DNA of 64,000 nt from Candidatus Omnitrophota bacterium. Lineage in GTDB: Bacteria > Omnitrophota > Gorgyraeia > Gorgyraeales > Gorgyraeaceae. The stretch is from contig JBDRCN010000001.1 in NCBI GenBank assembly GCA_043821705.1, positions 8,851 to 72,850 on the forward strand. The letters are read 5' to 3'. Of the stretch, positions 208-58,844 are shown piece by piece. The position numbers were made by a program, and so were the translations under genes. Position 1 is the stretch's first letter. Each line of letters opens with the position of its first letter. Under the pieces are notes generated by a model. It was not told the origin of the DNA and ran no database searches. It saw only the letters and a list, made by a program, of their open reading frames with translations.

Positions 208-223
208 ATAATTTCTTTCTTAT

Positions 224-311
224 AGCAGCGGGTCCTGTCCAAGATTCACCCCGCAAGTGCTCGCAAAACTCCTGCGCGCTTGCAGGGACCCCAATCTCGG
301 CCACCCGCTGC
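224..311 (-). repeat. Repeat family B copy B1 (~85 nt palindromic element, terminal IR agcagcgggt/acccgctgct)
   Basis: Reverse complement matches 57194-57272 at about 90% identity. It has nested inverted repeats (ccctgcaag / cttgcgggg). Confidence 0.8.
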
Positions 312-399
312 CACAATAATAATTTAAATGCCTCTTTCAGATACAGTTAAACAAAGTCGCGAACAAGCTCCTGAATAGCTTCTAACTATAAGTAAAAAG

Positions 400-554
400 A
401 GCAGCTTGGTTGGTTCTAGAAGCATCTTGAAAATTCGAGCGGGCATGGTCCCCGCCTATTTTAGCACGATGCGGGGGAGCGAGAATTTTCATGAAGCGCA
501 GGATTCCCACGCTGGGGGAATCCAAGCGGTGCTGATAGAATCAGCCAAGCTGCT
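400..554 (+). mobile_element. Repeat family A copy A1 (MITE-like, ~155 nt, about 10-bp terminal inverted repeats agcagcttgg / ccaagctgct)
   Basis: Shares a conserved core with 2184-2338, 19526-19803 and the reverse complement of 56868-57044. The core reads ctagaagcatcttgaaaatt-gagcgggca...gagaattttcatgaagcg-aggattYcc-Ncgctgg-ggRaatcc-Ragcggtgctgatag. Confidence 0.85.
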
Positions 555-1878
555 CCTTTTCTTTACCAGAAATGTTCCGTATCTTCTCGAGATACTCCTT
601 TAACTTCTTTTCGTAGCCGATGTCTGTCGGCTCATAATATATCTTTTTCTCTGGTATATAGTCCTGCTCTACATAATGGTCTTTGTAACTATGTGCATAT
701 TTATAGCCTTCACCTTTACCTAGTTTTTTCTCTCCGCTATAAACAGCATTTTTTAAATGCTTTGGCACTTCCATGGTCCTGCCTTCCTCAACATCCTTCA
801 TCGCTTTATTTATCCCTAGATAACTTGCATTACTTTTTGGCGCGCATGCTATGTAACACACTGCTTGAGCCAGAGGGATCCTGCATTCAGGCATACCTAC
901 AAAATCAGCTACCTGGAATGCTGCATTCGCCAGCACCAAGGCCTGCGGGTCAGCATTTCCCACATCCTCACTCGCGCATATGACTATACGACGAGCAATA
1001 AATCTCGGGTCCTCTCCTCCATAAAGCATCTTTGCAAGCCAGTAAAGAGCTGCATCTGGATCAGAACCTCGCATACTCTTAATAAAAGCTGATATAGTAT
1101 CATAGTGTTCATCTTCATCCCTGTCATAGGCAATAGCTTTTTTCTGTATACTTTCTTCTGCAACCTTTAGTGTAAAATCTATCGCACCACTCTTGCCAGG
1201 TTTTGTGGTCAAAACTCCTACCTCTAATGCGTTCAAGGCCCTTCTAGCATCCCCGTCAGAGACATCACCTAAAAATTCCAAGGCCTTTTTTTCTACATTT
1301 ATTTTTTTATTACCAAAACCTCTCTCTTGATCTTTCAGGGCATTCTCCAATATTTTAACGATCTCGGGTTTAGCTAATTTTTTTAGTTCAAAGACTATTG
1401 AGCGTGATATTAAAGGTGAGACAAGTGAAAAAAATGGATTGTGCGTCGTAGCGCCTATCAAGACAGGGTTGCCTTTTTCCACATCCCCCATCAGGACATC
1501 CTGTTGCGCTTTATTGAACCTATGGATCTCATCTATAAAAAGGATGGTCTTCTTGTTGGTAGACGACTCTCTTTCCTTTGCAGAACGAAGAGCATCCCTT
1601 AACTCCTGCACATTCGAAGAGACTGCATTTATATCATGAAAGTAACTACCTGTGATCCTGGCTACCACATGGGCAAGCGTGGTCTTGCCTGTGCCAGGAG
1701 GCCCATAAAGTATAAGAGAGGATATTCTGTCAGCGTCTATTGCGCGACGCAGAAGCTTCTCTTCTCCCAATATATGTTCCTGTCCTATAAATTCATCCAG
1801 GTTCACAGGACGCATCCTGACAGCTAAAGGAGAGAACTTACTTATAGAGTTTTTTTGAGAATAAAATAGATCCGCCAT
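541..1878 (-). CDS. rarA: Recombination factor RarA/MgsA (AAA+ ATPase)
   Basis: 445-aa ORF with a Walker A motif (GPPGTGKTT) and the MgsA C-terminal domain. The last 4 codons and the stop lie inside the A1 repeat. Confidence 0.9.
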   Translation of the reverse strand: MADLFYSQKNSISKFSPLAVRMRPVNLDEFIGQEHILGEEKLLRRAIDADRISSLILYGPPGTGKTTLAHVVARITGSYFHDINAVSSNVQELRDALRSAKERESSTNKKTILFIDEIHRFNKAQQDVLMGDVEKGNPVLIGATTHNPFFSLVSPLISRSIVFELKKLAKPEIVKILENALKDQERGFGNKKINVEKKALEFLGDVSDGDARRALNALEVGVLTTKPGKSGAIDFTLKVAEESIQKKAIAYDRDEDEHYDTISAFIKSMRGSDPDAALYWLAKMLYGGEDPRFIARRIVICASEDVGNADPQALVLANAAFQVADFVGMPECRIPLAQAVCYIACAPKSNASYLGINKAMKDVEEGRTMEVPKHLKNAVYSGEKKLGKGEGYKYAHSYKDHYVEQDYIPEKKIYYEPTDIGYEKKLKEYLEKIRNISGKEKEQLG

Positions 1879-2136
1879 GATAAGTGTTTAAAAAAAATCC
1901 CCACTGATGCCGCAAGAAAGAACGTTTTACGAACCCTTCGATCAAGTGGGCTCCTTCTTAGATATTTATTGTTTCCCTGCTCAGTTCCTGCAAGGCCTAC
2001 AGCCATATCTAAAGTCAGGCTCCCATTAACATAGTGTTGGTTCAAAAACTCTTCATTCCTGCGCACATCGTAGGGACAGTTTAATTATAACATAACTTTG
2101 ACTGTAAAGCAAAATCTTAAAATAACTCCCTTACTT

Positions 2137-2153: not shown

Positions 2154-2183
2154 AAGCGAAAAGTTGTATGACGCTATATAGTA

Positions 2184-2338
2184 GCTGTCTTGGCTCAGAC
2201 CTAGAAGCATCTTGAAAATTAGAGCGGGCACGGTTGCCCTAGACCATACATGTCTTGCAGAGCGAGAATTTTCATGAAGCGAAGGATTTCCTCGCTGGGG
2301 AAATCCGAGCGGTGCTTATAGGGCTGAGCCAAGACAGC
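2184..2338 (+). mobile_element. Repeat family A copy A2 (15-bp TIR gctgtcttggctcag / ctgagccaagacagc)
   Basis: Core identical to A1 except for compensatory changes in the ggatttcc/ggaaatcc stem. Its 3' end abuts the pheT stop codon. Confidence 0.85.
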
Positions 2339-4399
2339 CTAACGTATCTCTACGCCCAGCTTTTTTACAAGCGCTTCTTGTACTTTCATATGAAGAGCCT
2401 GGACATCTTCATCTTTCAGGGTTTTTTCATCCGAACGATATTCTACGCTATAAGCTAAACTCTTTTTGCCATCTTGTATCTGTTGGCCCTTATATATATC
2501 AAAGATGTCAATGGAAGTTACTAGCCCTCCTCCTTCAGCCCTTATGACATTAAATATGTTTTCAGCGCTTAGATCATTACTAGCGATCATCGATATATCT
2601 CTCTTCATGGAGGGATATTTAGGAAGTGCCTTGAACCTGGTAGGTATTACGTGATCTATTAGTTCTTCAAAATCTATCTCAGCAATATAAACCTTGTCCT
2701 TGATATCGAAGAACCTGGCTGTCTTTTCCTTGACCTCTCCGAGACTACCTATCTTGATATTCCCGATCTTTAAGTCTAAGGCCATGTCTTCCCTAAAGAT
2801 AGTGTACTCGCCTTTTTCCAGCTTATAGTCTTTCACACCTAAAGAGACCAAGAATTTTTCTACCACGCCTTTCATGTCGAAGAAATCTATCTCTCGAGAA
2901 TGTTCTTTCCAATTGCCAGGAGTATTCCCGAATATAGCCATAGAGACCATGTTTTTTTCTTTTATCTCGTTCTTGGCCCTGTCTATACTATAGACCTTAT
3001 TGATCTCAAAAAGTTTGACAAGAGAATTTCTTCTATTTATATTCCAGCTTAATACCTCGAGCATCTCTGCGACAAGGGTTGGCCTCATGAATGCCTGATT
3101 CGCACTTAATGGATTTTGTAAGCGAACTACATTGTCAAATGATATGCCCAATGTCTCAATGCTAGCACGACTCGTAAGAGTATAAGTGACTACTTCGTTA
3201 AGCCCGAGTCTTGTCAATATCTCTTTTGATCTTTTTTTCAAGGCAGTGAGTGTCTTCTTTTCTTCTTCGTATAACTTCCCTATAGAAAGTCTTGGCAGTT
3301 TTGAAGGTACCTTATCATAGCCATATATACGGACGATCTCCTCTATGAGATCAATATCTCTTTCCAGATCCTGCCTATATATAGGTACTTTTACTGTTAT
3401 CTTATTCTTTGTCTTCTTGGAGATCTTAAGATCTAATCCTGCTAAAGATGCAATAACATCTTTTCTACTGATATCTATCCCTAATATCCTGGGTATCTCG
3501 CCTAGATCTAAAGATATCTCTTTTTCTTTTAAGATCTTTCCTCCTACATCAGTAAGATTTCCTGAGCACCTAGCTTTGGCAATATTCTTTATCATCTCCT
3601 GCGCTCTCATACTAGCTGAATAGACCATTGCAGGATCCACTCCTCTTTCAAATCTATAGCTTGATTCAGATGCTAGAGCTAATTTTCGTTGTGTCTTTCT
3701 TACGCTGACTGGGTCAAAATATGCGCTCTCTAAAAATATTGTCTTGGTCTCTTCAGTGATCTCAGTGTCCAGGCCTCCCATAATACCTGCTACTGCAACT
3801 GGTTTTACATCATCAGCTATTATAAGCATTGTAGGGTCAAGCTCTCTTCTTACACCGTCAATAGTGGTAAGCTCTTCTCCTTTTCTAGCGCGCCTGACAA
3901 TGATCCTTTGTTTTTCTAATTTCTCCAAGTCAAATGCATGGAGGGGCTGGCCTGTCTCAAATAATACATAATTAGTTATATCAACTATATTATTTACGCT
4001 TCTTACTCCCATGGCATTCAGTCTCTCGACGAGCCATTCAGGAGAAGGCCCTACTTTTACATTTTTCATAATGCATCCTACATACCTAGGGCAGGCTTTT
4101 TTATCCTCTATCTCTACTTTTGCCTTGCCCCTGGCTGGACCCTTTTTCATGTAAGATTTTTTTATAGACGCTGGCAGATTAAGAGTCTTCTTAGTAGCAC
4201 TGGCTAGTTCTCTAGCTACACCTATAATAGACAGGCAATCAGGCCTATTGGGCGTGATCTCTATATCCATGACATGGTCTTTACCCGTCTCTAAAGAACC
4301 TTCTACTTCAAGGCCTGTCATGGTAAGAGCTTGTTTTATCTCTTCAAGCCCTGCTTTTATATGGACAAAATCCTTTAACCAGTTTAATGTAACTCGCAT
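2339..4399 (-). CDS. pheT: Phenylalanine--tRNA ligase beta subunit (no N-terminal OB/tRNA-binding domain)
   Basis: 686-aa ORF whose N-terminus is MRVTLNWLKDFV and which has B3/4, B5 and FDX-ACB domain signatures. Confidence 0.9.
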   Translation of the reverse strand: MRVTLNWLKDFVHIKAGLEEIKQALTMTGLEVEGSLETGKDHVMDIEITPNRPDCLSIIGVARELASATKKTLNLPASIKKSYMKKGPARGKAKVEIEDKKACPRYVGCIMKNVKVGPSPEWLVERLNAMGVRSVNNIVDITNYVLFETGQPLHAFDLEKLEKQRIIVRRARKGEELTTIDGVRRELDPTMLIIADDVKPVAVAGIMGGLDTEITEETKTIFLESAYFDPVSVRKTQRKLALASESSYRFERGVDPAMVYSASMRAQEMIKNIAKARCSGNLTDVGGKILKEKEISLDLGEIPRILGIDISRKDVIASLAGLDLKISKKTKNKITVKVPIYRQDLERDIDLIEEIVRIYGYDKVPSKLPRLSIGKLYEEEKKTLTALKKRSKEILTRLGLNEVVTYTLTSRASIETLGISFDNVVRLQNPLSANQAFMRPTLVAEMLEVLSWNINRRNSLVKLFEINKVYSIDRAKNEIKEKNMVSMAIFGNTPGNWKEHSREIDFFDMKGVVEKFLVSLGVKDYKLEKGEYTIFREDMALDLKIGNIKIGSLGEVKEKTARFFDIKDKVYIAEIDFEELIDHVIPTRFKALPKYPSMKRDISMIASNDLSAENIFNVIRAEGGGLVTSIDIFDIYKGQQIQDGKKSLAYSVEYRSDEKTLKDEDVQALHMKVQEALVKKLGVEIR

Positions 4400-11069: not shown

Positions 11070-11121
11070 GGCCTGCCATCCGAAGCCAGACTTTCAAATC
11101 GCCTTTCGTAAAGGCGTAGGA
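11070..11121 (-). repeat. Repeat family D copy D1 (tcctacgccttt-CGAAAGGC-...-ctggcttcggatggc), immediately 3' of tRNA-Val
   Basis: Matches 36348-36399 (3' of tRNA-Gln) and 45661-45714 (3' of bamA). It contains the hairpin cgccttt-acg-aaaggcg. Confidence 0.7.
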
Positions 11122-11198
11122 TGGTGGGCTCAAGAGGACTCGAACCTCTGACCTCTTCCATGTCAAGGAAGCGCGCTATCCAACTGCGCCATGAGCCC
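11122..11198 (-). tRNA. tRNA-Val (anticodon GAC)
   Basis: Minus-strand cloverleaf with the anticodon loop ccttGACatgg and a T-arm ggttcgagtcc ending in CCA. Confidence 0.8.
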
Positions 11199-11199
11199 A

Positions 11200-11309
11200 T
11201 CAAATTTGTTCTACTTCGCTCTTCGACCTACTAATCGATGGTAGAGCTTCGTAGGAATCATTCTTCGAAGCCCCACCGGAATATTTTATACTCAAAGGGC
11301 GTAGAAGAA
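11200..11309 (-). repeat. Repeat family E copy E1 (~105 nt tRNA-trailer element)
   Basis: Its reverse complement aligns with 36534-36640 (ttcttcttcgccctttgagtataaaatactccggtggggcttcgaagaatgattcctacgaagc...). This alignment is why the six-frame ORFs 11200..11391 and 36482..36691 share the peptide ILLRPLSIKYSGGASKNDSYEA. Confidence 0.75.
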
Positions 11310-11397
11310 TGGTGCCGGGGGTGGGACTCGAACCCACAAGACCTTTTGGGCCACAGGATTTTAAGTCCTGCGTGTTTGCCAATTTCACCACCCCGGC
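11310..11397 (-). tRNA. tRNA-Leu (anticodon TAA), long variable arm
   Basis: Minus-strand sequence gccggggtggtgaaattggc...ggacTTAAaatcc...ggttcgagtcccacccccggcacca. Confidence 0.8.
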
Positions 11398-19198: not shown

Positions 19199-19278
19199 GT
19201 TATTCTCCTTGTAAGGGTAGCATTATAACACAATGCGTTTTATCGTCAAGAAAAAAATGGTTGCTTTACATCAAGGAA

Positions 19279-19290
19279 CGGGTCCTGTCC
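19279..19290. repeat. Family B terminal fragment (cgggtcctgtcc)
   Basis: Matches the B1/B2 terminus and lies adjacent to C1. Confidence 0.45.
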
Positions 19291-19309
19291 GCCTTAATAG
19301 CCACACCAA

Positions 19310-19492
19310 CCTAACCCTAGCCTGTGACCTTTGGCGCTGGAACACCGCGCCGTGTTCTACGGTTTAGAGCTCGCTCTACGAATAGAGCTTTCGCCTTTAG
19401 TCAGGCTCGATCTCGCTCTAAAGCCTTGAACACTTCATGTTTAAATACTACGGGATGCCGCTATGTTCCTGATGCGCCAAAGGCTCTCAGCC
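19310..19492 (+). mobile_element. Repeat family C copy C1 (~185 nt, 28-bp TIR cctaaacccagcctgtgacctttggcgc)
   Basis: About 90% identical to 53469-53660. Internal hairpins include gaacac-cgcgcc-gtgttc and ctcgctcta direct repeats. Confidence 0.85.
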
Positions 19493-19525
19493 TAGGTTTG
19501 GTTAGCATATAGCTATTAGCGGATG

Positions 19526-19803
19526 GCTTGGCTCATCCCTAGAAGCATCTTGAAAATTTAGAGCGGCCTGCCCGCCGAAGCTTTAGCGTAGGAGGGGCAC
19601 GGTTGATAAAGCGAAGTTTCCTGCTCTTACGCATTAGTTATTTGAAGATTATTGCACTGTAAAAGCTATTATTAATTGTATATCAGTAACCATGGTTCGC
19701 AGGGAACCAGCATATCTATTAATTATAAGGCTGGTTTCATGAAGCGCAGGATTCCCACGCTGGGGGAATCCAAGCGGTGCTGATAGGGGTGAGACAAGAC
19801 AGG
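19526..19803 (+). mobile_element. Repeat family A copy A3 (with ~150-nt internal insertion)
   Basis: The 5' and 3' conserved blocks are identical to A1/A2, and the middle is expanded (19563-19735). Confidence 0.8.
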
Positions 19804-19825
19804 CCGCTAATAAATATATTTTCCT

Positions 19826-19853
19826 TGAAATGGAAAAATCTTACTGTTATAAT
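19826..19853 (+). promoter_or_regulatory. Candidate sigma70 promoter for dnaA (TTGAAA-16/17-TATAAT)
   Basis: The sequence ttgaaatggaaaaatcttactgttataat ends about 10 nt before the dnaA ATG, which implies a near-leaderless transcript. Confidence 0.5.
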
Positions 19854-19862
19854 GTTTGACCT

Positions 19863-21203
19863 ATGGCAATAGACATAATAGATATATGGGATAAAATCCT
19901 GGCGCGCACAAAGGACGAGATAGGGGAAAGGGCTTTTGAGAACTGGTTCACCCAGACCAATCTCCAGACTTTAAACGATGACAGCATCGTTGTCGAGACC
20001 CCGTCTAATTTTATAAAAGATTGGATATACGACCATTACCGCGATGCATTGAACATTGCTATTCTAAAAACCATCGGTAAGATAGTCCCTGTAAAATTCG
20101 AAGTAAGGCCATCCAGCGCCCCTGGGAAAAACCGCAGCATTGAGAAAAATAATCCCCCAGCACCCCAATCCATCACTAAAAAAGCTTCTTATTTAAACCC
20201 AAGTTATACATTTGAAGGTTTTGTAGTAGGGTCTTCAAATCGTTTTGCGCACGCAGCTACAATGGCTATCGCAGAATCTCCTGCAAAAGCATACAACCCT
20301 TTGTTTATATACGGAGGGGTCGGGCTAGGAAAAACCCACCTTATGCAAGCTGCCTGCCATTATATCTCCGAGATGCACAAGGGGCTCAAGACGTTTTATA
20401 CTTCGAGCGAAAGCTTTACTAACGAATTGATAAACTCCATAAAAAATAGAACTTCTTCTAATTTCAGGGAAAAATACAGAAAAGTAGATGTCCTTCTTAT
20501 AGATGATGTACATTTTATTGCTGGGAAAGAATCCACCCAGGAAGAGTTTTTTCATACGTTTAATGCTCTTTACGACGCGCACAAACAGATCGTGCTTTCA
20601 AGTGATAGGCCGCCCAAGACCATTCCAGGCCTTGAAGAAAGGCTTGTCTCAAGGTTTGAATGGGGGCTCGTAACTGATGTACAGCCACCGGACCTCGAGA
20701 CTCGTATGGCTATCATAAATAAAAAAGCTGAAAAGACAAACGCCCAACTTCCTTCTGATGTGATGTACTTGATAGCTGAGAAGATCCGTACAAATATACG
20801 TGAGCTTGAAGGAGCTCTTATAAAGGTCATCGCCTATGCATCTCTCCAAAACAAAAAAATAGACCTGGCGCTTGCCCAAGATGTCTTAAAAGATGTGATA
20901 TCGGAAAAAGAAAAAAGAATATCGGTTGAACTCATCCAAAAAAAGGTCGCAGACTATTTTGGCATCAAGACCTCTGATCTTAAGGCAAAGAAGCGAAGTA
21001 GGCAGGTCGTCTACCCTAGGCAAATAGCTATGTATCTTACCAGGGAACTTACTAGTCTCACGCTCCCGGATATTGGCGCAAATTTTGGCGGCAGGGATCA
21101 TTCTACGGTCATACATTCTTGCGATAAGATACAGAAGGAATTGAAGAAGAGCCAGAATGTTAAGAATGTTATCAACCGCTTGACATTGGAGATAAATAGT
21201 TAA
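19863..21203 (+). CDS. dnaA: Chromosomal replication initiator DnaA
   Basis: 446-aa ORF with AAA+ Walker A (GGVGLGKTHL) and a C-terminal DnaA-box-binding HTH. Confidence 0.95.
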   Translation: MAIDIIDIWDKILARTKDEIGERAFENWFTQTNLQTLNDDSIVVETPSNFIKDWIYDHYRDALNIAILKTIGKIVPVKFEVRPSSAPGKNRSIEKNNPPAPQSITKKASYLNPSYTFEGFVVGSSNRFAHAATMAIAESPAKAYNPLFIYGGVGLGKTHLMQAACHYISEMHKGLKTFYTSSESFTNELINSIKNRTSSNFREKYRKVDVLLIDDVHFIAGKESTQEEFFHTFNALYDAHKQIVLSSDRPPKTIPGLEERLVSRFEWGLVTDVQPPDLETRMAIINKKAEKTNAQLPSDVMYLIAEKIRTNIRELEGALIKVIAYASLQNKKIDLALAQDVLKDVISEKEKRISVELIQKKVADYFGIKTSDLKAKKRSRQVVYPRQIAMYLTRELTSLTLPDIGANFGGRDHSTVIHSCDKIQKELKKSQNVKNVINRLTLEINS

Positions 21204-36273: not shown

Positions 36274-36347
36274 TGCCTGGTAGTGTAATGGTAACACATC
36301 AGCTTTTGGAGCTGAGTTTCTAGGTTCGAATCCTAGCCGGGCAGCCA
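36274..36347 (+). tRNA. tRNA-Gln (anticodon TTG)
   Basis: Sequence tgcctggtagtgtaatggtaacacatcagctTTTGgagctga...ggttcgaatcctagccgggcagcca. Confidence 0.8.
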
Positions 36348-36399
36348 TCCTACGCCTTTCACGAATAGCGAATAGAACGTCTGGCTTCGGATGGCGAGG
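36348..36399 (+). repeat. Repeat family D copy D2 (immediately 3' of tRNA-Gln)
   Basis: The sequence tcctacgcctttcacgaatagcgaatagaacgtctggcttcggatggcgagg aligns with D1 and D3. Confidence 0.7.
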
Positions 36400-36512
36400 T
36401 AGTATTAGGATTCGAATGGAGTCCCGCGCTGACGAATAGGAAGAAAAGCTACGACGAAAAGGAGTAGCACCAGCGGGACGGATGGCCGACCCTGAGCGGA
36501 TGCGAAGGGCGC

Positions 36513-36533
36513 CGAATCCTAGCCGGGCAGCCA
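36513..36533 (+). repeat. 21-nt duplicate of the tRNA-Gln 3' end (cgaatcctagccgggcagcca)
   Basis: Identical to 36327-36347 but without the upstream T-stem or the remainder of a tRNA. The result is direct repeats 166 bp apart, resembling attL/attR. Confidence 0.7.
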
Positions 36534-36640
36534 TTCTTCTTCGCCCTTTGAGTATAAAATACTCCGGTGGGGCTTCGAAGAATGATTCCTACGAAGCCAT
36601 ACCGTCGATTAATAAGTTGAATGGCGTAGTAGAACATATT
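36534..36640 (+). repeat. Repeat family E copy E2
   Basis: Aligns with the reverse complement of 11200-11309. Confidence 0.75.
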
Positions 36641-43325: not shown

Positions 43326-45659
43326 ATGAAAATAAAAAGTTTTTTTAGTGCAACTTGCTTGGTTTTATTTATCTCGCTGATACTTTCTATCAGTTTCTGC
43401 CATACCTCCTTTTCCGAAGAAGAATATGCAAACAAGATCATAAAATATGTAAGCGTAAAAAACAATAAGACTATTTCTGAGGCCAAGATCTTATCAAAGC
43501 TGAAGACCAAAAAGGGAGAACTCTTTCTAGAAAAGGTAGTAAATGAAGATGTAAAAAGATTATACCTTTTAGGGTTCTTTAGTGATGTAGAGGTCTCTAT
43601 AGAAGAGGTCTATGATGGCATAGGGATTGTTTTTATAGTCACAGAAAAATCCCCATTAAGTTCGATCACCTTTAAAGGCAACAAGGTGTATAACGCACAG
43701 AAATTGTTAGCTGTTGTAAAATCCAAATCAAGCGAACTAGTGGATGAGAAAAAGCTTAGAAAGGATTCTGAAGCAATAGAGGATCTTTATAAAAGAGCTG
43801 GGTATCCCTGGATCACTGTACACCACGAGTTAAAGTCTATTAACGAACAAGGGGAAGGCGAGGTAGTGTTTGTAATAGATGAAGGACCAAAGGCAGTGGT
43901 GAGGGGGATAAGCATACTTGATAATGTGGCTTTCAGTGACAAGAGGATCTTGAAAATAATAAAAAGCAGGACCTCTGGGTTCTTTAGGTCAGGTGTTTAC
44001 AAGCAGGATGTGATAGAAGATGATATGGAGCGTATCAAGGCATTTTATAGGAATGAGGGTTTTCTTGATGTAGAGTCAAATTACGAATTATTGTCCCATG
44101 AAAAAAGAAGCAAAAAGTGGATAGAACTTGTTATGAGGATAGATGAGGGAAAGCAATATATAACAGGAGAGACTAAGATAACTGGGAATTCAATATTTTC
44201 CCAAGAAGAACTGAAAAGCCTTCTTAAATTAAGAAGAGATGATGTGTTTACTGAGAGTGCGTTACATAAAGAAGTCACGACGCTTCAGGAGAATTATTTT
44301 GACAAAGGCTATATCATGGCAAAGGTCAAACCTGACACTGTCCTCAACATAGAGACCGATAAAGTGGATGTTATCTATAATATTTTTGAAGGAGAGGTAT
44401 GCTACGTCAACAAGGTCAATATACAAGGGAACACCAAGACAAAAGATATTGTTGTCAGGAGAGAACTAAGGCTCAATCCAGGGGACAGGTATGACGGGAA
44501 TAAACTTAGAAAGAGTAAAGAACGCCTTTATAATCTGGGATTTTTTGAGGACATAGCGTTCAATATAGACGACACAGAAACATCCAATAAAAAAGATATG
44601 GAGATAGAAGTAAAGGAGTCCAAGACAGGAGAATTTAGTTTCGGTGGTGGATTTTCATCTATAGATAAGCTGATCGGATTTATTGAAATTGAGCAGAAAA
44701 ATTTTGATCTCTTTAACTTTCCTACTTTTACCGGTGATGGGCAAGACCTTAAGCTAAGAGCAGAACTCGGAAGTGTGCGCAAGAATTATCTATTAAGCTG
44801 GACAGAGCCATGGATATTTGATCATCCTGTTTCATTCGGTTTCGACCTCTATGCTACAGAGAGGAGCAGGAGTGGTTCTACTGGCTATGCATATGATGAA
44901 GCAAAAGAAGGGGTAACGCTAAGGCTTGCGAAATGGTTCAATGATTTCCTGAGAGGGGACCTTTCTTATAGGCTAGAGTCAGTTGACATATCAGACCTGT
45001 CTGTAGACGCATCCCAGTCGCTGAAAGATGAAGCAGGTAAGAATACTATTAGCAGTGTCTTTATGCAGCTTACAAGAGATACAAGGGACAATAGATTTAA
45101 TCCTTCAAAAGGGCTTCTTGTGAGTGGTGCTTTTGAAGTAGCAGGGGGGGCCATAGGAGGAGATAAAGATTTTGCAAAATTCTCAGATTCTATAAGCCGT
45201 TATTCTACAATAGGTCCTTTTGTCTTAGAGTTAAAGGGGAGAAGCGGGGTGGTCACATCTTTTGGCGACTCGACAACAGTCCCTATATATGAAAGATTTT
45301 TTGCAGGAGGTACTTACACTGTCCGTGGCTATAAAGAAAGAGACATAGGCCCTAAAGATGTTTCAGGAGACCCTGTTGGTGGCGGAACAATGGTAGTGGG
45401 TAATGCAGAGCTGACTATGTCGATAATAGAAAATTTAAAAGGTGCTATATTTCTTGATGCTGGAAATGTTTGGGCTACACCTGACAGCAAGCCAAAGGAA
45501 GGCATGTTGACTAGAGGTATAAAAGTTGGTACTGGCGTAGGCGTGAGGATAAAGACTCCTATAGGGCCAGTAAAGCTTGATTATGGATTCCCCATGAATC
45601 CTGATGATAATCAGGAGGATACAGGTAGGTTCCATTTTAGTATGAGTAGAGGATTTTAA
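43326..45659 (+). CDS. bamA: Outer membrane protein assembly factor BamA
   Basis: 777-aa ORF with a signal peptide, five POTRA repeats and a C-terminal barrel ending HFSMSRGF. Confidence 0.9.
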   Translation: MKIKSFFSATCLVLFISLILSISFCHTSFSEEEYANKIIKYVSVKNNKTISEAKILSKLKTKKGELFLEKVVNEDVKRLYLLGFFSDVEVSIEEVYDGIGIVFIVTEKSPLSSITFKGNKVYNAQKLLAVVKSKSSELVDEKKLRKDSEAIEDLYKRAGYPWITVHHELKSINEQGEGEVVFVIDEGPKAVVRGISILDNVAFSDKRILKIIKSRTSGFFRSGVYKQDVIEDDMERIKAFYRNEGFLDVESNYELLSHEKRSKKWIELVMRIDEGKQYITGETKITGNSIFSQEELKSLLKLRRDDVFTESALHKEVTTLQENYFDKGYIMAKVKPDTVLNIETDKVDVIYNIFEGEVCYVNKVNIQGNTKTKDIVVRRELRLNPGDRYDGNKLRKSKERLYNLGFFEDIAFNIDDTETSNKKDMEIEVKESKTGEFSFGGGFSSIDKLIGFIEIEQKNFDLFNFPTFTGDGQDLKLRAELGSVRKNYLLSWTEPWIFDHPVSFGFDLYATERSRSGSTGYAYDEAKEGVTLRLAKWFNDFLRGDLSYRLESVDISDLSVDASQSLKDEAGKNTISSVFMQLTRDTRDNRFNPSKGLLVSGAFEVAGGAIGGDKDFAKFSDSISRYSTIGPFVLELKGRSGVVTSFGDSTTVPIYERFFAGGTYTVRGYKERDIGPKDVSGDPVGGGTMVVGNAELTMSIIENLKGAIFLDAGNVWATPDSKPKEGMLTRGIKVGTGVGVRIKTPIGPVKLDYGFPMNPDDNQEDTGRFHFSMSRGF

Positions 45660-45660
45660 C

Positions 45661-45714
45661 CCTCCTACGCCTTTGCGAAAGGCTATTCGAAAGGCTGGCT
45701 TCGGAGGGTAGGCG
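45661..45714 (+). repeat. Repeat family D copy D3 (immediately 3' of bamA)
   Basis: The sequence cctcctacgcctttgcgaaaggctattcgaaaggctggcttcggagggtaggcgg aligns with D1 and D2. Confidence 0.7.
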
Positions 45715-50983: not shown

Positions 50984-51381
50984 AAAAGAAAACATACAAA
51001 AACCTACAAAATAATATACGCACTTTAAAGACGCCTAATATAGATGTCTGGAAGAATCAATACTCTGATAAGGATTATGTTATTGAACTCGAGAACCGTG
51101 AATTTACTTGTGTATGCCCTAAGACAGGTCTTCCTGATTTTGCAACTATAACTTTAAGATATAGTCCAGATAAAACTTGTATTGAATTGAAGTCTTTAAA
51201 GATGTATATGCTTAGTTTTAGGAATATGGGCATATTCCATGAACACGTGATAAACAGGATATTGGATGATCTTGTCAAGGCCTGTAAGCCACGCTATGTA
51301 TATATTAAAGGAGAGTTTGGTGTAAGAGGTGGGATAAAAACAGTAGTTGAAAGTGAATATAAGGGGAGTGGAGCATGTTAG
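50980..51381 (+). CDS. queF: NADPH-dependent 7-cyano-7-deazaguanine reductase
   Basis: 133-aa ORF with the Cys motif FTCVCPKTGLPDF. Confidence 0.85.
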   Translation: MKKKTYKNLQNNIRTLKTPNIDVWKNQYSDKDYVIELENREFTCVCPKTGLPDFATITLRYSPDKTCIELKSLKMYMLSFRNMGIFHEHVINRILDDLVKACKPRYVYIKGEFGVRGGIKTVVESEYKGSGAC

Positions 51382-52709
51382 TAAAAACTAAAAAAGATGT
51401 CATAAAATTAGTAAAAAAACATAATGTTAGATTTATAAAACTCTGGTTCACAGATGTTCTGGGGTTTCAAAAAGGTGTTTCTATTACAAGGAGTGAACTT
51501 GAGAGGGCTCTTTATGATGGTATGGGATTTGATGGTTCATCCATAGAAGGGTTCGCCCGTATTGAAGAAAGCGATATGGTAGCAATGCCTGATGTATCGA
51601 CTTTTCAGATGATACCTTGGAGGTCTAAAAAAGAAGGGCTTTCTGCAAGGATGTTCTGTGATGTGCTCCAGCCAAATGGAAAACCTTTTGAAGGAGACCC
51701 AAGATTTGTATTAAAGAAGAATTTGAAGTTAGCAAATGACATGGGATATACGAATTATTATGTAGGGCCTGAACTGGAGTATTTTTATTTCAACAACCCC
51801 AAGAATACTATCATATTGGACAGGGGAGGATATTTTGACCTTACGCCTTTAGATGTGGCGCAAGATCTGAGAAGAGATACAGTCTTGATGCTGGAAAAGA
51901 TGGGGATAGACGTAGAATATTCTCATCATGAAGTAGCTACATCACAGCACGAGATAGATCTTAGATATAATGATGTGCTCAAGATGGCAGACAATGTAAT
52001 GACCTATCGCATGGTCGTAAAAGAAGTAGCGAGGAAGAATGGGGCCTACGCGACATTTATGCCTAAGCCGATACACGGGATAAATGGAAGTGGTATGCAT
52101 GTACACCAATCTTTATTTAAAGGCAAGAAAAATGCTTTTTTTAGCAAGACTGACAAGAGGCATCTTTCTAACGAAGCCAAATATTTTATAGCAGGCATAT
52201 TAAAGCATGCACCTGAGATGGCAGCAGTAACGAATCAGTGGGTCAATTCTTATAAGAGACTTATCCCTGGTTATGAAGCGCCAGTATACATATGCTGGGC
52301 ACAGATGAATAGAAGTGCTCTTGTGAGAGTACCTATGTATAAGCCTGGGAAAGAACATGCTACTAGGATAGAATTCCGCTCGCCTGACCCAGCTTGCAAT
52401 CCTTACCTTGCGTTTTCAGTCATGCTTAGGGCTGGATTAGAAGGAATAAAGAATAAATATAAATTACAGGAACCTTCAGAAGATAATATTTATCATATGA
52501 CAGAGGAGGCAAGAGAAAAGGCCAACATAAAGTCTCTGCCTGAAGATCTATACGAAGCTATCAAGATCGCAGAAAAAAGCCAGCTTTTAAAGGACGCATT
52601 AGGAGATAAGGTCTTCAAATACTTCATAAGAAATAAATATATGGAATGGGACGAGTATAAGGCTCAAGTATCCCAATATGAAATAGACAAATATCTCCCT
52701 ATACTTTAA
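51375..52709 (+). CDS. glnA: Glutamine synthetase (copy 1)
   Basis: 444-aa ORF with GS beta-grasp and catalytic domains. Confidence 0.9.
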   Translation: MLVKTKKDVIKLVKKHNVRFIKLWFTDVLGFQKGVSITRSELERALYDGMGFDGSSIEGFARIEESDMVAMPDVSTFQMIPWRSKKEGLSARMFCDVLQPNGKPFEGDPRFVLKKNLKLANDMGYTNYYVGPELEYFYFNNPKNTIILDRGGYFDLTPLDVAQDLRRDTVLMLEKMGIDVEYSHHEVATSQHEIDLRYNDVLKMADNVMTYRMVVKEVARKNGAYATFMPKPIHGINGSGMHVHQSLFKGKKNAFFSKTDKRHLSNEAKYFIAGILKHAPEMAAVTNQWVNSYKRLIPGYEAPVYICWAQMNRSALVRVPMYKPGKEHATRIEFRSPDPACNPYLAFSVMLRAGLEGIKNKYKLQEPSEDNIYHMTEEAREKANIKSLPEDLYEAIKIAEKSQLLKDALGDKVFKYFIRNKYMEWDEYKAQVSQYEIDKYLPIL

Positions 52710-52721
52710 TACCAATAAAAA

Positions 52722-53459
52722 ATGAAAAAACTTATCACATTTTCACTAATAATATTATCTTGCCTGATCTTGTATTCTACGATAGATTTTAGCAAGAATG
52801 GCCATGCATTAGAAGGGATATTAAATAGCAGCTCAGGGGAATTACCTTTCTCAAAAGGCGAGAGATTAATGTATGATGTTAAGTTGAACGGTGTAACGAT
52901 AGGCAGCTCGATACTTACATTTTACGGAGAAAAAGAGATAAATGGAAAGGCTGCGCATCACATTAATTTTTATACCCTTATCCCATCTCTTAAGGATTCA
53001 GAAGATATTTACGGAGATACTGAAAGTTTTTTACCAATGGAGGTTCATAGAAACCTTAAGAAGAAGCTGGGATTTAATGAGACAATAATAGAGGTATATG
53101 ATCAGGAGAATTTTAGGATAGATATCACCTCAAAGAGCAAGCTTCGCAGCAGAAAACTTTCTATTGAAAGAGATGCTCCGGTCCACAATCCCATACTCTT
53201 AAGTTATTTCTGTAGAGCTAAAGCGAGCTTTACTAAAGAAGATAGCTTCGACATTACTTTATCAAGGACAAAGTTTCAAGTTTATTATGATGGGAAGAAA
53301 GAGATAAAAACACCTTTAGGAAAACAGCTTGCCCATGTATTTACAAGTGACCCCAAGAAGTTTACGCTCTACCTAAGTGATGATGATAGGAAGACCCCAC
53401 TCATGATAGATAGCCCTGGCACCCTCGGCTACTCCCTTGTAATCCGCTCCATCGAATAA
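52722..53459 (+). CDS. Hypothetical secreted protein
   Basis: 245-aa ORF with an N-terminal signal/TM segment. Confidence 0.5.
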   Translation: MKKLITFSLIILSCLILYSTIDFSKNGHALEGILNSSSGELPFSKGERLMYDVKLNGVTIGSSILTFYGEKEINGKAAHHINFYTLIPSLKDSEDIYGDTESFLPMEVHRNLKKKLGFNETIIEVYDQENFRIDITSKSKLRSRKLSIERDAPVHNPILLSYFCRAKASFTKEDSFDITLSRTKFQVYYDGKKEIKTPLGKQLAHVFTSDPKKFTLYLSDDDRKTPLMIDSPGTLGYSLVIRSIE

Positions 53460-53468
53460 CTACCTTAA

Positions 53469-53660
53469 CCTAAACCCAGCCTGTGACCTTTGGCGCTGGA
53501 ACACCGCGCCGTGTTCTACGGTTTAGAGCTCGCTCTACGAATAGAGCTTTCGCCTTTAGTTAGGCTCGATCTCGCTCTAAAGCCTTGAACACTTCATGCT
53601 TAAATATTACTGGATGCCGCTATGTTCCTTATGCGCCAAAGGTCACAGGCTGGGTTTAGG
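53469..53660 (+). mobile_element. Repeat family C copy C2 (perfect 28-bp TIRs)
   Basis: cctaaacccagcctgtgacctttggcgc ... gcgccaaaggtcacaggctgggtttagg. Confidence 0.85.
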
Positions 53661-53728
53661 TTGCTATGGCTTTAAGCTATAATTACATTGACTCAATGGC
53701 TGGGGTGTGGTATATTTATAATATAAGG

Positions 53729-56513: not shown

Positions 56514-56858
56514 ATGATGAAACTAATAATCGCAATGATACAACCGCATAAATTACCAGATGTAAAAAAAGCCTTATTTGATGCCGAGGTCTACAAGATG
56601 ACAGTTACAAATGCCTTAGGCTGTGGCCAGCAAAAAGGCTTTACAGAGACTTATAGAGGCGTAATACATGATGTGAATCTCCTGAAGAAAGTAAGGCTTG
56701 AGATAGCTGTCAATGAAGACTTTGTTCAACCTACTATAGATGCGATAATCAGCGGCGCTAGAACAGGTGAAATAGGAGATGGTAAGATATTTATACTTGA
56801 CCTGCCAGAATGCATCAGGATACGTACTGGAGAAAGAGGCAATGAGGCAATAGGTTAG
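56514..56858 (+). CDS. glnB: Nitrogen regulatory protein P-II
   Basis: [20 protein letters not shown]...; the T-loop region is present. Confidence 0.9.
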
Positions 56859-56867
56859 GACTTGCTG

Positions 56868-57044
56868 GCTGTCTTGGCCTGGCTCTATCAGCACCGCTCG
56901 GATTTCCCCAGCGAGGAAATCCTTCGCTTCATGATAATTTTCGCTCCCCGCCATTTTGTAACGTCTATTTGATAGTAGTTAAAATGGCGGGACCATGCCC
57001 GCTCAAATTCTCAAGATGCTGCTAGAGCCAGACCAAGCCAGCCT
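56868..57044 (-). mobile_element. Repeat family A copy A4 (minus orientation, long GC hairpin variant)
   Basis: The reverse complement reads ...ctagcagcatcttgagaatttgagcgggca...gagcgaaaattatcatgaagcgaaggatttcctcgctggggaaatccgagcggtgctgatag... Confidence 0.85.
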
Positions 57045-57193
57045 TTACTCAAACCTATAGGCTTATTGCGATTTCCAGGTCTCTTAGGCTGTCAGCATGA
57101 ATGAGATTTTCAAATTCATGAACATAGTCTTGATTTAGCTTGCTTGAACAGCATTTTGCAGATTACTTTTAACCTGATTAGAAGTAGCAGATT

Positions 57194-57272
57194 AGCAGTG
57201 GGTGGCCGAGATTGGGGTCCCTACAAGCGCGCAGGCAAATGCCGAGCACTTGCGGGGTGAATCTCGGACAGG
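57194..57272 (+). repeat. Repeat family B copy B2
   Basis: Matches the reverse complement of 224-311. Confidence 0.8.
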
Positions 57273-57310
57273 ACCCACTGCTAAGATAGTTAAAGGTGCG
57301 GAGAATACGA

Positions 57311-57336
57311 GTGGTGCTGATAGGGGTAAGACAGGG
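57311..57336 (+). repeat. Family A 3'-end fragment (gtggtgctgataggggtaagacagggc)
   Basis: Matches the A3 3' terminus. Confidence 0.5.
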
Positions 57337-57360
57337 CAGTTCGCTAGGGATAAAAAAGAG

Positions 57361-57515: not shown

Positions 57516-58844
57516 ATGGTTATGACAAAGAAAGATGTATTGAAGCTGGTAAAGGAAAATGACGTAAAATTTATCAGGCTTTGGTTCACAGATCTCTTAG
57601 GCCAGGTTAAAAGCTTTGCAATATTAGACAGTGAATTGGAAGGCGCTTTAGAAAATGGTATGGGATTTGATGGTTCATCTATTACAGGCTACCAGGATAT
57701 TGAAGAAAGCGATATGATCGCTCTTCCTGACCCTAGCACATTTTGTTTGCTTCCATGGAGGCCAGGAGAAAAAGCTGTAGCAAGGATGATATGCGATGTT
57801 CTAACGCCAGACAAACAGCCTTATGAAGGTGACCCAAGGTATGTTTTGAAAAAGGCCCTAAAAAGAGCATCTGATATGGGATTTGATCATTTTTATCTAG
57901 GGCCAGAATTAGAGTTTTTCTATTTCAGGAATGACTCAGGCACGGAGATCCTTGATAAAGGAGGGTATTTTGACCTTACGACCTTGGATGTGGCAAGTGA
58001 TCTAAGAAGAGAGACAGTCTTGGCTTTAGAGAAGATGGGTATCAAGATAGAGTATTCTCATCATGAAGTCGCACCGTCTCAACATGAAGTTGACATGAGA
58101 TACGATGATGCATTAAAAATGGCAGATAATGTCATTACCTATAGAATAGCAGTAAAAGAGATCGCTAGTAAATTCGGGGTGTACGCTACTTTTATGCCTA
58201 AACCTATTTTTGGACAGAATGGTTCAGGTATGCACACTCACCAGTCACTATTTAAAGGTGAGAAAAACGCATTTTTTGATAAAAGCACAAAGGATAACCT
58301 GTCTGATACAGCGCGTTCCTACATAGCAGGTCTATTAAAACATTCAAAAGAGATCTGTTCGATATTTGCTCAAACTACAAATTCTTATAAGAGGCTAGTG
58401 CCTGGTTACGAAGCGCCTGTATATGTCGCATGGTCTCGCAGAAACAGGTCAGCTCTTGTCAGAGTTCCTTTATATCATCCTGGTATGGAAAAAGCTACAA
58501 GGTGTGAATTCAGGGCATGTGATCCAGCATGTAACCCATATCTCACATTTGCAGCAATGCTTCACGCAGGATTAGAGGGAATAGAGAAAGGCTATAAATG
58601 CCCTGATGCAATGGAAGGCAATCTATATCATCTAAGCGACAATGAAAGAAAAGCGCGAGGTATAGAGACCTTACCTGATAACTTAGGCCAGGCTATTAAT
58701 ATTACAGAAGGAAGTGAACTAGTTAAAAAGACCCTTGGGACACATATTTTCCCGAGATTCATAGAGCTGAAGAAAAAGGAATGGGATAGTTACAGGATAC
58801 AGGTACCTCAGTACGAATTAGATAAGTATTTATCTATTCTTTAA
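57516..58844 (+). CDS. glnA: Glutamine synthetase (copy 2)
   Basis: 442-aa ORF, about 70% identical to copy 1. Confidence 0.9.
   Translation: MVMTKKDVLKLVKENDVKFIRLWFTDLLGQVKSFAILDSELEGALENGMGFDGSSITGYQDIEESDMIALPDPSTFCLLPWRPGEKAVARMICDVLTPDKQPYEGDPRYVLKKALKRASDMGFDHFYLGPELEFFYFRNDSGTEILDKGGYFDLTTLDVASDLRRETVLALEKMGIKIEYSHHEVAPSQHEVDMRYDDALKMADNVITYRIAVKEIASKFGVYATFMPKPIFGQNGSGMHTHQSLFKGEKNAFFDKSTKDNLSDTARSYIAGLLKHSKEICSIFAQTTNSYKRLVPGYEAPVYVAWSRRNRSALVRVPLYHPGMEKATRCEFRACDPACNPYLTFAAMLHAGLEGIEKGYKCPDAMEGNLYHLSDNERKARGIETLPDNLGQAINITEGSELVKKTLGTHIFPRFIELKKKEWDSYRIQVPQYELDKYLSIL

Follow-up and report, generated by a model that had tools for sequence, protein, structure and literature searches.

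Does a short repeat that recurs in the intergenic spacers of an uncultivated bacterium represent a mobile element, a small RNA gene, or an RNA gene that moves? This question was raised by a 64,000-bp stretch of DNA from Candidatus Omnitrophota (contig JBDRCN010000001.1, positions 8,851 to 72,850; here called the window), for which an earlier inspection of the sequence alone, termed the original prediction in the following, had proposed four copies of a repeat, family A, belonging to a MITE (miniature inverted-repeat transposable element) or a mobile small-RNA gene family. Our analysis supported this proposal. As findings that would speak against it, the original prediction had named copies confined to the window, a lack of empty sites and an already described Rfam family, and among the outcomes examined none of these was observed. 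Based on the evidence presented below, family A is probably a local branch of a widespread family of non-autonomous, MITE-like elements of 155-260 bp that carry a structured RNA or single-stranded DNA module.

Copies in the window and empty sites in related genomes

The 20-nt 5' block of the element (CTAGAAGCATCTTGAAAATT) matched the window four times at up to two mismatches, with 0.01 matches expected, and the 23-nt 3' block likewise matched four times (0.00 expected), so that together with alignments of the copies all four could be confirmed at the proposed places and strands. An unfiltered covariance-model scan of the window returned exactly the same four loci (A1, A2, A3, and A4), of which A1, A2, and A4 match partly by construction, since the model was trained on these three copies and on metagenome relatives. 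The elements are non-coding and 155-300 bp long. An inverted-repeat search of the window showed that the postulated terminal inverted repeats (TIRs) are real, with 15-26 bp in the window copies and a sequence specific to each copy. Single-strand folds of the intact copies were far more stable than those of shuffled sequence (z of -6.7 to -8.8).

Copy A1 (394-562, plus strand; 143 bits with the covariance model, shuffle z = -6.7) is intact and located between rarA (open reading frame (ORF) 541-1878, minus strand) and a thiI-like gene. It displays a terminal palindrome (395-409/545-560), the conserved loop block GAGCGGGCATGGT (437-449), and a hairpin, P4, composed of GGATTCCC (501-508), the loop ACGCTGG (509-515), and GGGAATCC (516-523). 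As suggested, A1 provides rarA with its end and stop codon, though with the last 4-6 codons rather than four (palindrome 395-560): the natural C-terminus of RarA is replaced by 4-6 codons and a stop from the 3' arm of the element. Copy A2 (2178-2346, plus strand; 152.5 bits, z = -8.8), intact and the best preserved, lies between pheT and the 6S RNA gene and reveals terminal repeats at 2184-2198 and 2324-2338, the two strands of a helix P3 at 2213-2220 and 2267-2274, the loop block GAGCGGGCACGGT at 2222-2234 with GAGCGA at 2260-2265, and P4 at 2284-2291 and 2299-2306 around the loop at 2292-2298. Its direct contact with the pheT stop was borne out, as A2 ends at 2338 and the stop codon occupies 2339-2341. 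Copy A4 (56860-57048, minus strand; 148.6 bits, z = -8.7), also intact, starts 2-10 nt past the stop of a P-II-like ORF (56514-56858) and possesses a longer variable hairpin, with a 12-bp GC stem; in plus-strand reading, its P4 consists of GGATTTCC (56900-56907), CCAGCGA (56908-56914), and GGAAATCC (56915-56922). The window stem GGATTTCC/GGAAATCC is changed to GGATTCCC/GGGAATCC in A1 and A3, and alignment of the copies verified this as the compensatory double change that had been claimed; its one-sided U.G intermediate is present in one metagenome copy (L047).

Copy A3 (19513-19811, plus strand; 42 bits over 19680-19811, z = -4.1), located between the divergent promoters of rpmH and dnaA, had been taken for an ordinary copy. 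It does retain the 5' block (19539-19558), P4 (19749-19771), and termini close to the family canon (TTAGCGGATGGCTTGG ... CAAGACAGGCCGCTAA), but the copy is rearranged: helix P3 is without its 3' strand, the internal loop is largely missing, and about 130 nt of unrelated AT-rich sequence lie in the middle. Furthermore, the four copies do not form the complete set, as an additional, fifth one was found as a degenerate 3' fragment (GGAGAATACGAGTGGTGCTGATAGGGGTAAGACAGGGCAGTTCGCTA; 57295-57346, plus strand) directly adjoining the repeat I2b described below.

At three sites that are occupied in the window, the corresponding loci of related Omnitrophota genomes are devoid of the element. The window copies are therefore genuine insertions of a small element, whose mobility is thereby shown; the empty-site alleles called for by the original prediction were found at all three sites that could be tested. 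Between rpmH and dnaA, the spacer comprises only 100 bp in relative L001 (79% DnaA identity), with both promoters conserved, compared to about 650 bp in the window, where it is composed of an unrelated repeat (D2a) and A3, a growth through two element insertions. The synteny pheT - 6S - rarA - thiI was found without the element in L091, L092 (Ca. Gorgyraea atricola), and L093. While the pheT-rarA gap amounts to 461 bp in the window, it is 224-245 bp in these three genomes, and the rarA-thiI gap of 333 bp is reduced to 74 bp or replaced by a gene overlap; scanning the three loci with the model resulted in no match.

Extent of the family, its subfamilies and its target sites

Using the P4 hairpin alone (GGATTNCCNCGCTGGGGNAATCC) as query resulted in at least 80 JGI metagenome contigs. 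All listed contigs except two or three, whose flanks look unrelated, displayed the same modules in the same order, i.e., GAGCGGGCAYGGT, a variable hairpin, GAGCGA, a helix strand, CGAGCG, and P4. A 41-nt pattern comprising P4 with its flanks and the junction gave no match in GTDB genomes or JGI metagenomes, and the junction sequence of the window lineage (TCATGAAGCG) is private to that lineage. A covariance model (R1) built from 19 copies of subfamily (i) together with A1, A2, and A4 yielded 97 matches in 519 kb, weak reverse-strand echoes included, with about 80 forward-strand matches in 80 metagenome contigs, among them copies deviating from the original P4 pattern. Copies outside the window are thus numerous.

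Grouping of the copies by their termini revealed several subfamilies. Subfamily (i) shares the architecture of the window copies and has the termini TTAGCGGGTGGCTTGG...CAAGACAGGACCCGCTAA, also given as TTAGCGGGT...ACCCGCTAA; one of its contigs encodes a hisG 69% identical to Omnitrophota hisG. Subfamily (ii) displays quite different outer helices with the termini AAGCATCTTTTTTTCCG...CGGAAAAAAAGATGCTT, and the GuaA encoded beside it is 90% identical to that of NCBI 'Candidatus Aminicenantes' metagenome-assembled genomes (MAGs). Further variants comprise GC-rich ones (70% GC) and variant (iii), so that the hosts of the family include Omnitrophota, Aminicenantes, and GC-rich hosts, i.e., at least two phyla. 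Other collections gave no further members: a 5'-block scan of GTDB genomes led to nine matches in unrelated taxa, compatible with chance, a scan of viral contigs with the internal-loop motif led to 21 chance matches, none fitting the model, and BLAST of plasmid and phage collections found no match. Searching the whole window against Rfam 15 at gathering thresholds revealed no match to the element; at E up to 10 on positions 150-2400 only a microRNA model was hit (19.9 bits, with 55 as its threshold), and four loci representing other variants remained without a match at E up to 1, so that no Rfam 15 family matches any variant searched. Since the family is also undescribed in the literature that we searched (work on MITEs and RNA motifs of Omnitrophota and Aminicenantes), it is a widespread family absent from both, with a core shared on different termini across at least two phyla.

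The mobility seen in the window extends to subfamily (ii). The site between guaA and dnaE is occupied in L044, L063, L048, L065, and L080 and empty, with a gap of 4 bp, in the complete Aminicenantes genome L097, which brings the insertion polymorphisms to four sites in total (rpmH-dnaA, pheT-6S, rarA-thiI, and guaA-dnaE). Direct repeats of 7-13 bp were detected 0-4 nt from the inferred termini of subfamily (ii) at no fewer than eight independent sites: 12-13 bp, including the guaA stop codon, in L044/L065, 10-13 bp in L055, 10 bp each in L004 and L037, 9 bp with one mismatch in L039, and 7-8 bp in L052, L013, and L033. Those of 9-13 bp (L044/L065, L055, L004, L037, and L039) lie 0-2 nt from the termini AAGCATC...GATGCTT (L044, 4330-4400), and by our own estimate the chance of the longest repeats is about 10^-4 per locus. 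We interpret these repeats as target-site duplications left by a staggered cut. A TA target duplication of the IS630/mariner type was ruled out: the outer TTA..TAA covaries to TTT..AAA in other subfamilies, and the flanking TA was therefore assigned to the helix. In addition, an element of about 540 bp with related termini (..ATCTTTTTTTCC..) was observed in opposite orientations in two Aminicenantes loci (L098, 8064-8601, and L065, 3933-4470).

Insertions reside in AT-rich spacers, very often 0-20 nt from a gene stop codon, and sometimes replace the last codons together with the stop; in many copies it is the 3' end of the element that lies 0-20 nt from the stop codon of a convergent gene. Several copies occur per contig, flanked by unrelated housekeeping genes (guaA, dnaE, ABC transporter, AMMECR1). 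Hairpins (AAAAAGGGGACAGGCCCCTTTTT) that resemble bidirectional intrinsic terminators stand directly beside many subfamily-(ii) copies (e.g., L044, L023, L029, L064, and L067) and fit an insertion preference for gene 3' ends. This location also raises the question of whether the repeat is a host cis-element, i.e., a terminator or an mRNA-stabilising hairpin comparable to REP/BIME. A stop codon is found within 0-20 nt of three window copies out of four and of many copies from metagenomes, and the fold is very stable; however, the stems are not followed by a U-tract, the upstream gene's mRNA usually does not contain the stable strand, A3 lies between two divergent promoters, and a simple hairpin role fails to explain an asymmetric three-way junction conserved in sequence. 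We therefore regard this explanation as the least probable of those considered and highly improbable in itself. With respect to intrinsic terminators in particular, only weak internal sub-hairpins at background frequency were detected, and neither P1 nor P4 is followed by a U-tract.

A conserved fold on one strand

RNAalifold analysis of a structure-blind MAFFT alignment revealed a common architecture consisting of a terminal helix (P1/P2), a three-way junction, and two arms, P3 and P4. The long helix P1/P2 is formed by the terminal inverted repeat, and its sequence defines the subfamily, while the core is a conserved and asymmetric segment of about 110 nt, with the three-way junction on one strand only. 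In the P3 arm, tandem G.A/A.G mismatches and two G-C pairs are combined with an internal loop that hardly varies (GGGCANGGU opposite GA), and the arm is capped by a variable hairpin, P3a; the P4 arm is an 8-bp hairpin with the loop NCGCUGG. The internal loop of the P3 arm, GAGCGGGCANGGU opposite GAGCGA, is conserved to at least 95%, and the unpaired blocks GAGCGGGCA-GGU and GAGCGA are identical to at least 95% though they lie outside every search pattern. Likewise, the tandem G.A/A.G mismatches (e.g., YGAGC opposite GCGAR), to which the recurring word GAGCG is due, are conserved while the flanking Watson-Crick pairs covary; subfamily (i) possesses one tandem G.A motif per arm.

In the MAFFT alignment of 22 copies, 97.9% of the cells were paired, compared to 88.8% in shuffles and 24-57% in slid controls, and 19 of 40 pairs showed compensatory changes. 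For 65 distinct copies aligned to the model, the corresponding values were 94.5% paired, 73.1% in shuffles, and 32 of 40 pairs compensatory across subfamilies; this alignment was fitted to the model and leans towards its structure, and as the copies are related by descent, the cell counts overstate the independent events. The covarying core claimed from the window copies thus gained stronger support than was available at first. Entire helices are swapped between subfamilies while pairing and loops persist. P3 occurs as GAAAAUU/AAUUUUC, AGGCU/AGCCU, and GGCC/GGCC, and P3a is different in nearly every lineage. P4 occurs as GGAUUUCC/GGAAAUCC, GGUUUUCC/GGAAAACC, GUUGGCC/GGCCAAC, and GGCCGCGC/GCGCGGCC, a variation that rests on about eight copies found by the model only, as the 80 loci were retrieved with the P4 sequence fixed. 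Altogether, the alignments show that the fold is maintained by compensatory changes. A candidate pseudoknot of 3 bp, joining G-G-C of the internal loop to G-C-U of the P4 loop, was paired in 99%, with one compensatory and five one-sided changes; this contact is possible, the variation being too small to establish it. A local hairpin (GGGCA/UGCCC) was dismissed, as it appeared in some subfamilies only and was not conserved, the P3a pairing being preferred.

The fold belongs to one strand, in the orientation given by the original prediction. Of 62 distinct copies, 61 fold more stably as the forward strand than as the reverse complement, with a mean advantage of 12.3 kcal/mol using RNA parameters and 6.5 kcal/mol using DNA parameters. 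Paired columns contained G.U in 84 cells (21 columns) versus A.C in 16 cells (10 columns), and the conserved purine-purine (G.A) mismatches become C.U on the opposite strand. Such strand-specific signals are not predicted for an element acting solely as double-stranded DNA.

A conserved core, covarying helices, and a strand-specific fold would also be displayed by ordinary free-standing small RNA genes that were duplicated, the apparent TIR being nothing but the closing helix of the RNA. The outermost TIR positions do covary like a helix, and no transposase was seen near the copies. Duplicated genes of this kind nevertheless seem unlikely to us by a wide margin, considering the insertion polymorphism at four sites, the target duplications of 7-13 bp in the Aminicenantes subfamily, the overwriting of the rarA end by one copy, and the coreless elements that share the same termini; moreover, no promoter or terminator was found, and the orientation is often antisense to the neighbours.

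The strand bias raises another explanation, namely that the element is moved as single-stranded DNA by an enzyme of the HUH/Y1 type, as in REPIN/RAYT or IS200/IS605-like systems, with the fold serving as the hairpin recognised by the enzyme. The stability advantage under DNA parameters (again 61 of 62 copies), the lack of a target duplication in the window subfamily, and an element orientation that flips with the replichore in the window are in line with this mechanism, and the tandem G.A mismatches together with the GAGC repeats are reminiscent of HUH Rep-binding sites. However, HUH/Y1 transposition makes no target duplications, while the Aminicenantes subfamily shows 7-13 bp; terminal inverted repeats are present, unlike the ends of IS200/IS605; no Y1 or RAYT gene adjoins any copy; orientation across all loci is only 22:15 relative to gene direction; and the folded strand in the window resides on the leading-strand rather than the lagging-strand template. 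Thus, we consider mobilisation by such an enzyme improbable.

Coreless relatives, the function of the core and known systems

Two 89-nt hairpin repeats of the window are informative on the roles of termini and core. I2a (223-311, minus strand) is arranged head-to-head with A1 at a distance of 83 nt and I2b (57195-57283, plus strand) head-to-head with A4 at a distance of 146 nt; both matched the model only weakly (8.5 bits, E 1.3, and 10.1 bits, E 0.49, respectively). Their termini (AGCGGGTGGC ... GACAGGACCCGCT) are exactly those of the metagenome subfamily (i), and they lack the three-way-junction core, which suggests that the termini are mobilised and the core is cargo. Head-to-head pairing recurs in L007 and, with an element of variant core, in L050, L076, and L005/L079. 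A mini-palindrome (ttagcagccacccgctgctaag, 2139-2160) looks like the two family termini directly joined, and may represent either a minimal element or the footprint of an excision. It is located in about 70 nt of extra sequence, absent from the relatives, that separates A2 from the promoter of the 6S RNA.

Several further features surround the copies. DnaA and PheT encoded in the window show 100% identity to proteins of an NCBI 'Candidatus Omnitrophota bacterium' MAG. The 6S RNA gene (1894-2079, minus strand; RF00013, 94.4 bits) lies between rarA and pheT, and its position and promoter are conserved in three related Omnitrophota genomes. Gene strands switch at rpmH/dnaA (about 19200-19900), with every gene left of about 19.5 kb encoded on the minus strand and every gene beyond it on the plus strand; since this switch occurs where rpmH and dnaA diverge, the window appears to span a replication origin. 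D2, an unrelated repeat family of about 200 nt with a 30-nt perfect TIR (AACCTAAACCCAGCCTGTGACCTTTGGCGC), comprises a copy adjoining A3 in the rpmH-dnaA spacer (19296-19510) and another (53465-53665) that starts 6 nt past the stop of ORF 52722-53459. ORF 57516-58844 (442 aa), which follows shortly after the A4/I2b cluster on its downstream side, is a paralog of ORF 51375-52709 (444 aa), with about 72% DNA identity over long stretches (repeats D1, D4, and D9). Other repeats flank tRNA genes (11071-11330, 36322-36640, and 45659-45713; I1, with 128 nt and 84% complementary, I6, and I11), and the 3' end of tRNA-Gln is directly duplicated (36327-36351 and 36513-36537), possibly as the trace of an integration site.

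Regarding the mechanism, a transposase encoded elsewhere would recognise the termini and move the element in trans, and the core would be a cargo selected for its fold. As a tentative guess to which we commit ourselves, the core may be a structured RNA. This RNA could be made by read-through or from neighbouring promoters, be freed from the long P1 rod by a double-strand RNase, and then bind a protein or act as a catalyst. Next in likelihood, and rather doubtful, is that the fold is used as single-stranded DNA during mobilisation. A more specific version of the RNA reading, possible though on balance unlikely, holds that the core is a functional RNA gene, i.e., a new protein-binding RNA or a new class of self-cleaving ribozyme, travelling as cargo on at least two unrelated transposon backbones; backbones with different termini and target duplications would then have carried it across Omnitrophota, Aminicenantes, and GC-rich hosts, and the core would be a truly mobile RNA gene of bacteria.

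Besides the common descent of the copies and their retrieval by a fixed P4, several points weigh against a trans-mobilised element with an RNA or DNA module. In MITEs the pattern is usually the opposite of the one seen here, where the interior is conserved and the termini vary, and the 5' arm of P1 itself belongs to the covarying fold. No recognisable target duplication was identified at the window copies and the subfamily-(i) copies inspected, and about 0.96 Mb of examined DNA revealed no transposase or autonomous element with matching termini. Among the ORFs near the copies, no transposase, reverse transcriptase, or HUH gene was linked to any of them, and clustering of ORFs within 3 kb of 80 copies led to spurious element ORFs and small housekeeping clusters only, with no associated protein. 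The copies displayed no promoter- or terminator-like signal above background; how the RNA would be transcribed is thus unexplained, which weakens the RNA reading more than anything else. In A1, A2, and A4, the strand that folds runs antisense to the adjacent genes; with respect to co-directional neighbours, 22 copies were antisense and 15 sense (22/37), and a further 13 copies lie between divergent and two between convergent genes.

Two other roles of the core were rejected. A guide RNA was dismissed, as the longest match between the variable hairpin and the flank averaged 6.07 nt, compared to 6.18 nt in controls. A micropeptide (MKRRIPTLGESKRC) was dismissed as well, since its ATG exists in the window lineage only: the ORF of 14-15 codons over P4 is restricted to that lineage, and other copies carry CGAGCG in place of ATGAAGCG.

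If the core acted as RNA, the element might also spread through it, as SINEs (short interspersed elements) and retrozymes do: a reverse transcriptase supplied in trans would copy a structured RNA, perhaps a self-cleaving ribozyme of a new kind, back into DNA. A strand-specific fold is expected under selection on an RNA template, the length of the target duplications is variable (7-13 bp), SINE cores likewise combine a conserved interior with ends that vary, and the three-way junction with its conserved junction and loop nucleotides and candidate pseudoknot is ribozyme-like. On the other hand, the long and near-perfect terminal inverted repeats are a hallmark of DNA transposons, an A-rich tail is lacking, none of the copies was seen to have a reverse transcriptase nearby, models of known ribozymes do not match, and the coreless elements with the same termini suggest that the termini, not the core, are mobilised. 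Hence, we give RNA-mediated spread little credence, and the trans-mobilised MITE-like element remains our preferred reading.

Bacterial MITEs are usually treated as decayed transposons with an unimportant interior. In the family described here, the interior is the conserved part and is shared by differently ended elements of uncultivated bacteria from two or more phyla. As an RNA, the core would rank among the more widespread structured RNAs missing from Rfam and would represent an RNA gene spreading by transposition; as a DNA fold, it would suggest that mobilisation involves the reading of a branched structure in single-stranded form. Either way, the elements reshape gene ends and promoter regions, as seen in the rewritten RarA C-terminus and the enlarged origin-proximal rpmH-dnaA spacer, and they are likely to break assemblies in short-read MAGs of these phyla.

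Compared to known systems, the core shares with three-way-junction RNAs that contain tandem G.A pairs (e.g., the hammerhead ribozyme) the three-helix junction, tandem sheared G.A pairs extending a helix, conservation of nucleotides in the junction or loops, and possibly a tertiary contact between loops. It differs from them in lacking the hammerhead core sequences CUGAUGA and GAAA, and Rfam ribozyme models gave no match at E up to 10 (A1 and A2) or at E up to 1 (four other variants), so that a hammerhead or other known ribozyme was rejected. Eukaryotic SINEs and retrozymes have in common with the family a conserved structured RNA-like core, variable ends, duplications of variable length, and enzymes supplied in trans, but the elements described here carry TIRs and no A-tail, and we know of no bacterial precedent for a SINE- or retrozyme-like element.

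Among single-strand systems, REPINs and REP elements (RAYT) are likewise repeated non-coding intergenic units with a long single-strand hairpin and compensatory changes. A conserved GTAG-type head is a feature of REP elements. The family A elements are larger, possess a branched, asymmetric core conserved in sequence, and in the Aminicenantes subfamily show duplications of 7-13 bp; no RAYT gene was seen near the copies examined. IS200/IS605 PATEs with omega-RNA (TnpB/IscB) are also non-autonomous, occur in multiple copies, and harbor a structured non-coding RNA or module. Membership in this group was rejected on account of the true TIRs, the duplications in subfamily (ii), and the lack of complementarity of a guide to the flank; in addition, neither a tnpB nor an iscB gene is adjacent to the copies, and the Rfam models HEARO and IS605-orfB remained without match.

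Of the features by which MITEs are recognised, the elements display small non-coding size, terminal inverted repeats, dispersed copies in unrelated contexts, and polymorphic insertion. With the bacterial representatives (Correia/CREE of Neisseria, ERIC, RUP, and Nezha) the family has in common the size of about 100-300 bp, the non-coding nature, the TIRs and the many copies, as well as the intergenic and often gene-end location, insertion polymorphism, and folding into a long hairpin, with target duplications in the Aminicenantes subfamily only. As judged from their descriptions, these named MITEs are set apart from the family presented here by its conserved interior with termini that differ by subfamily, and by an asymmetric three-way junction with compensatory changes on one strand that is shared across phyla.

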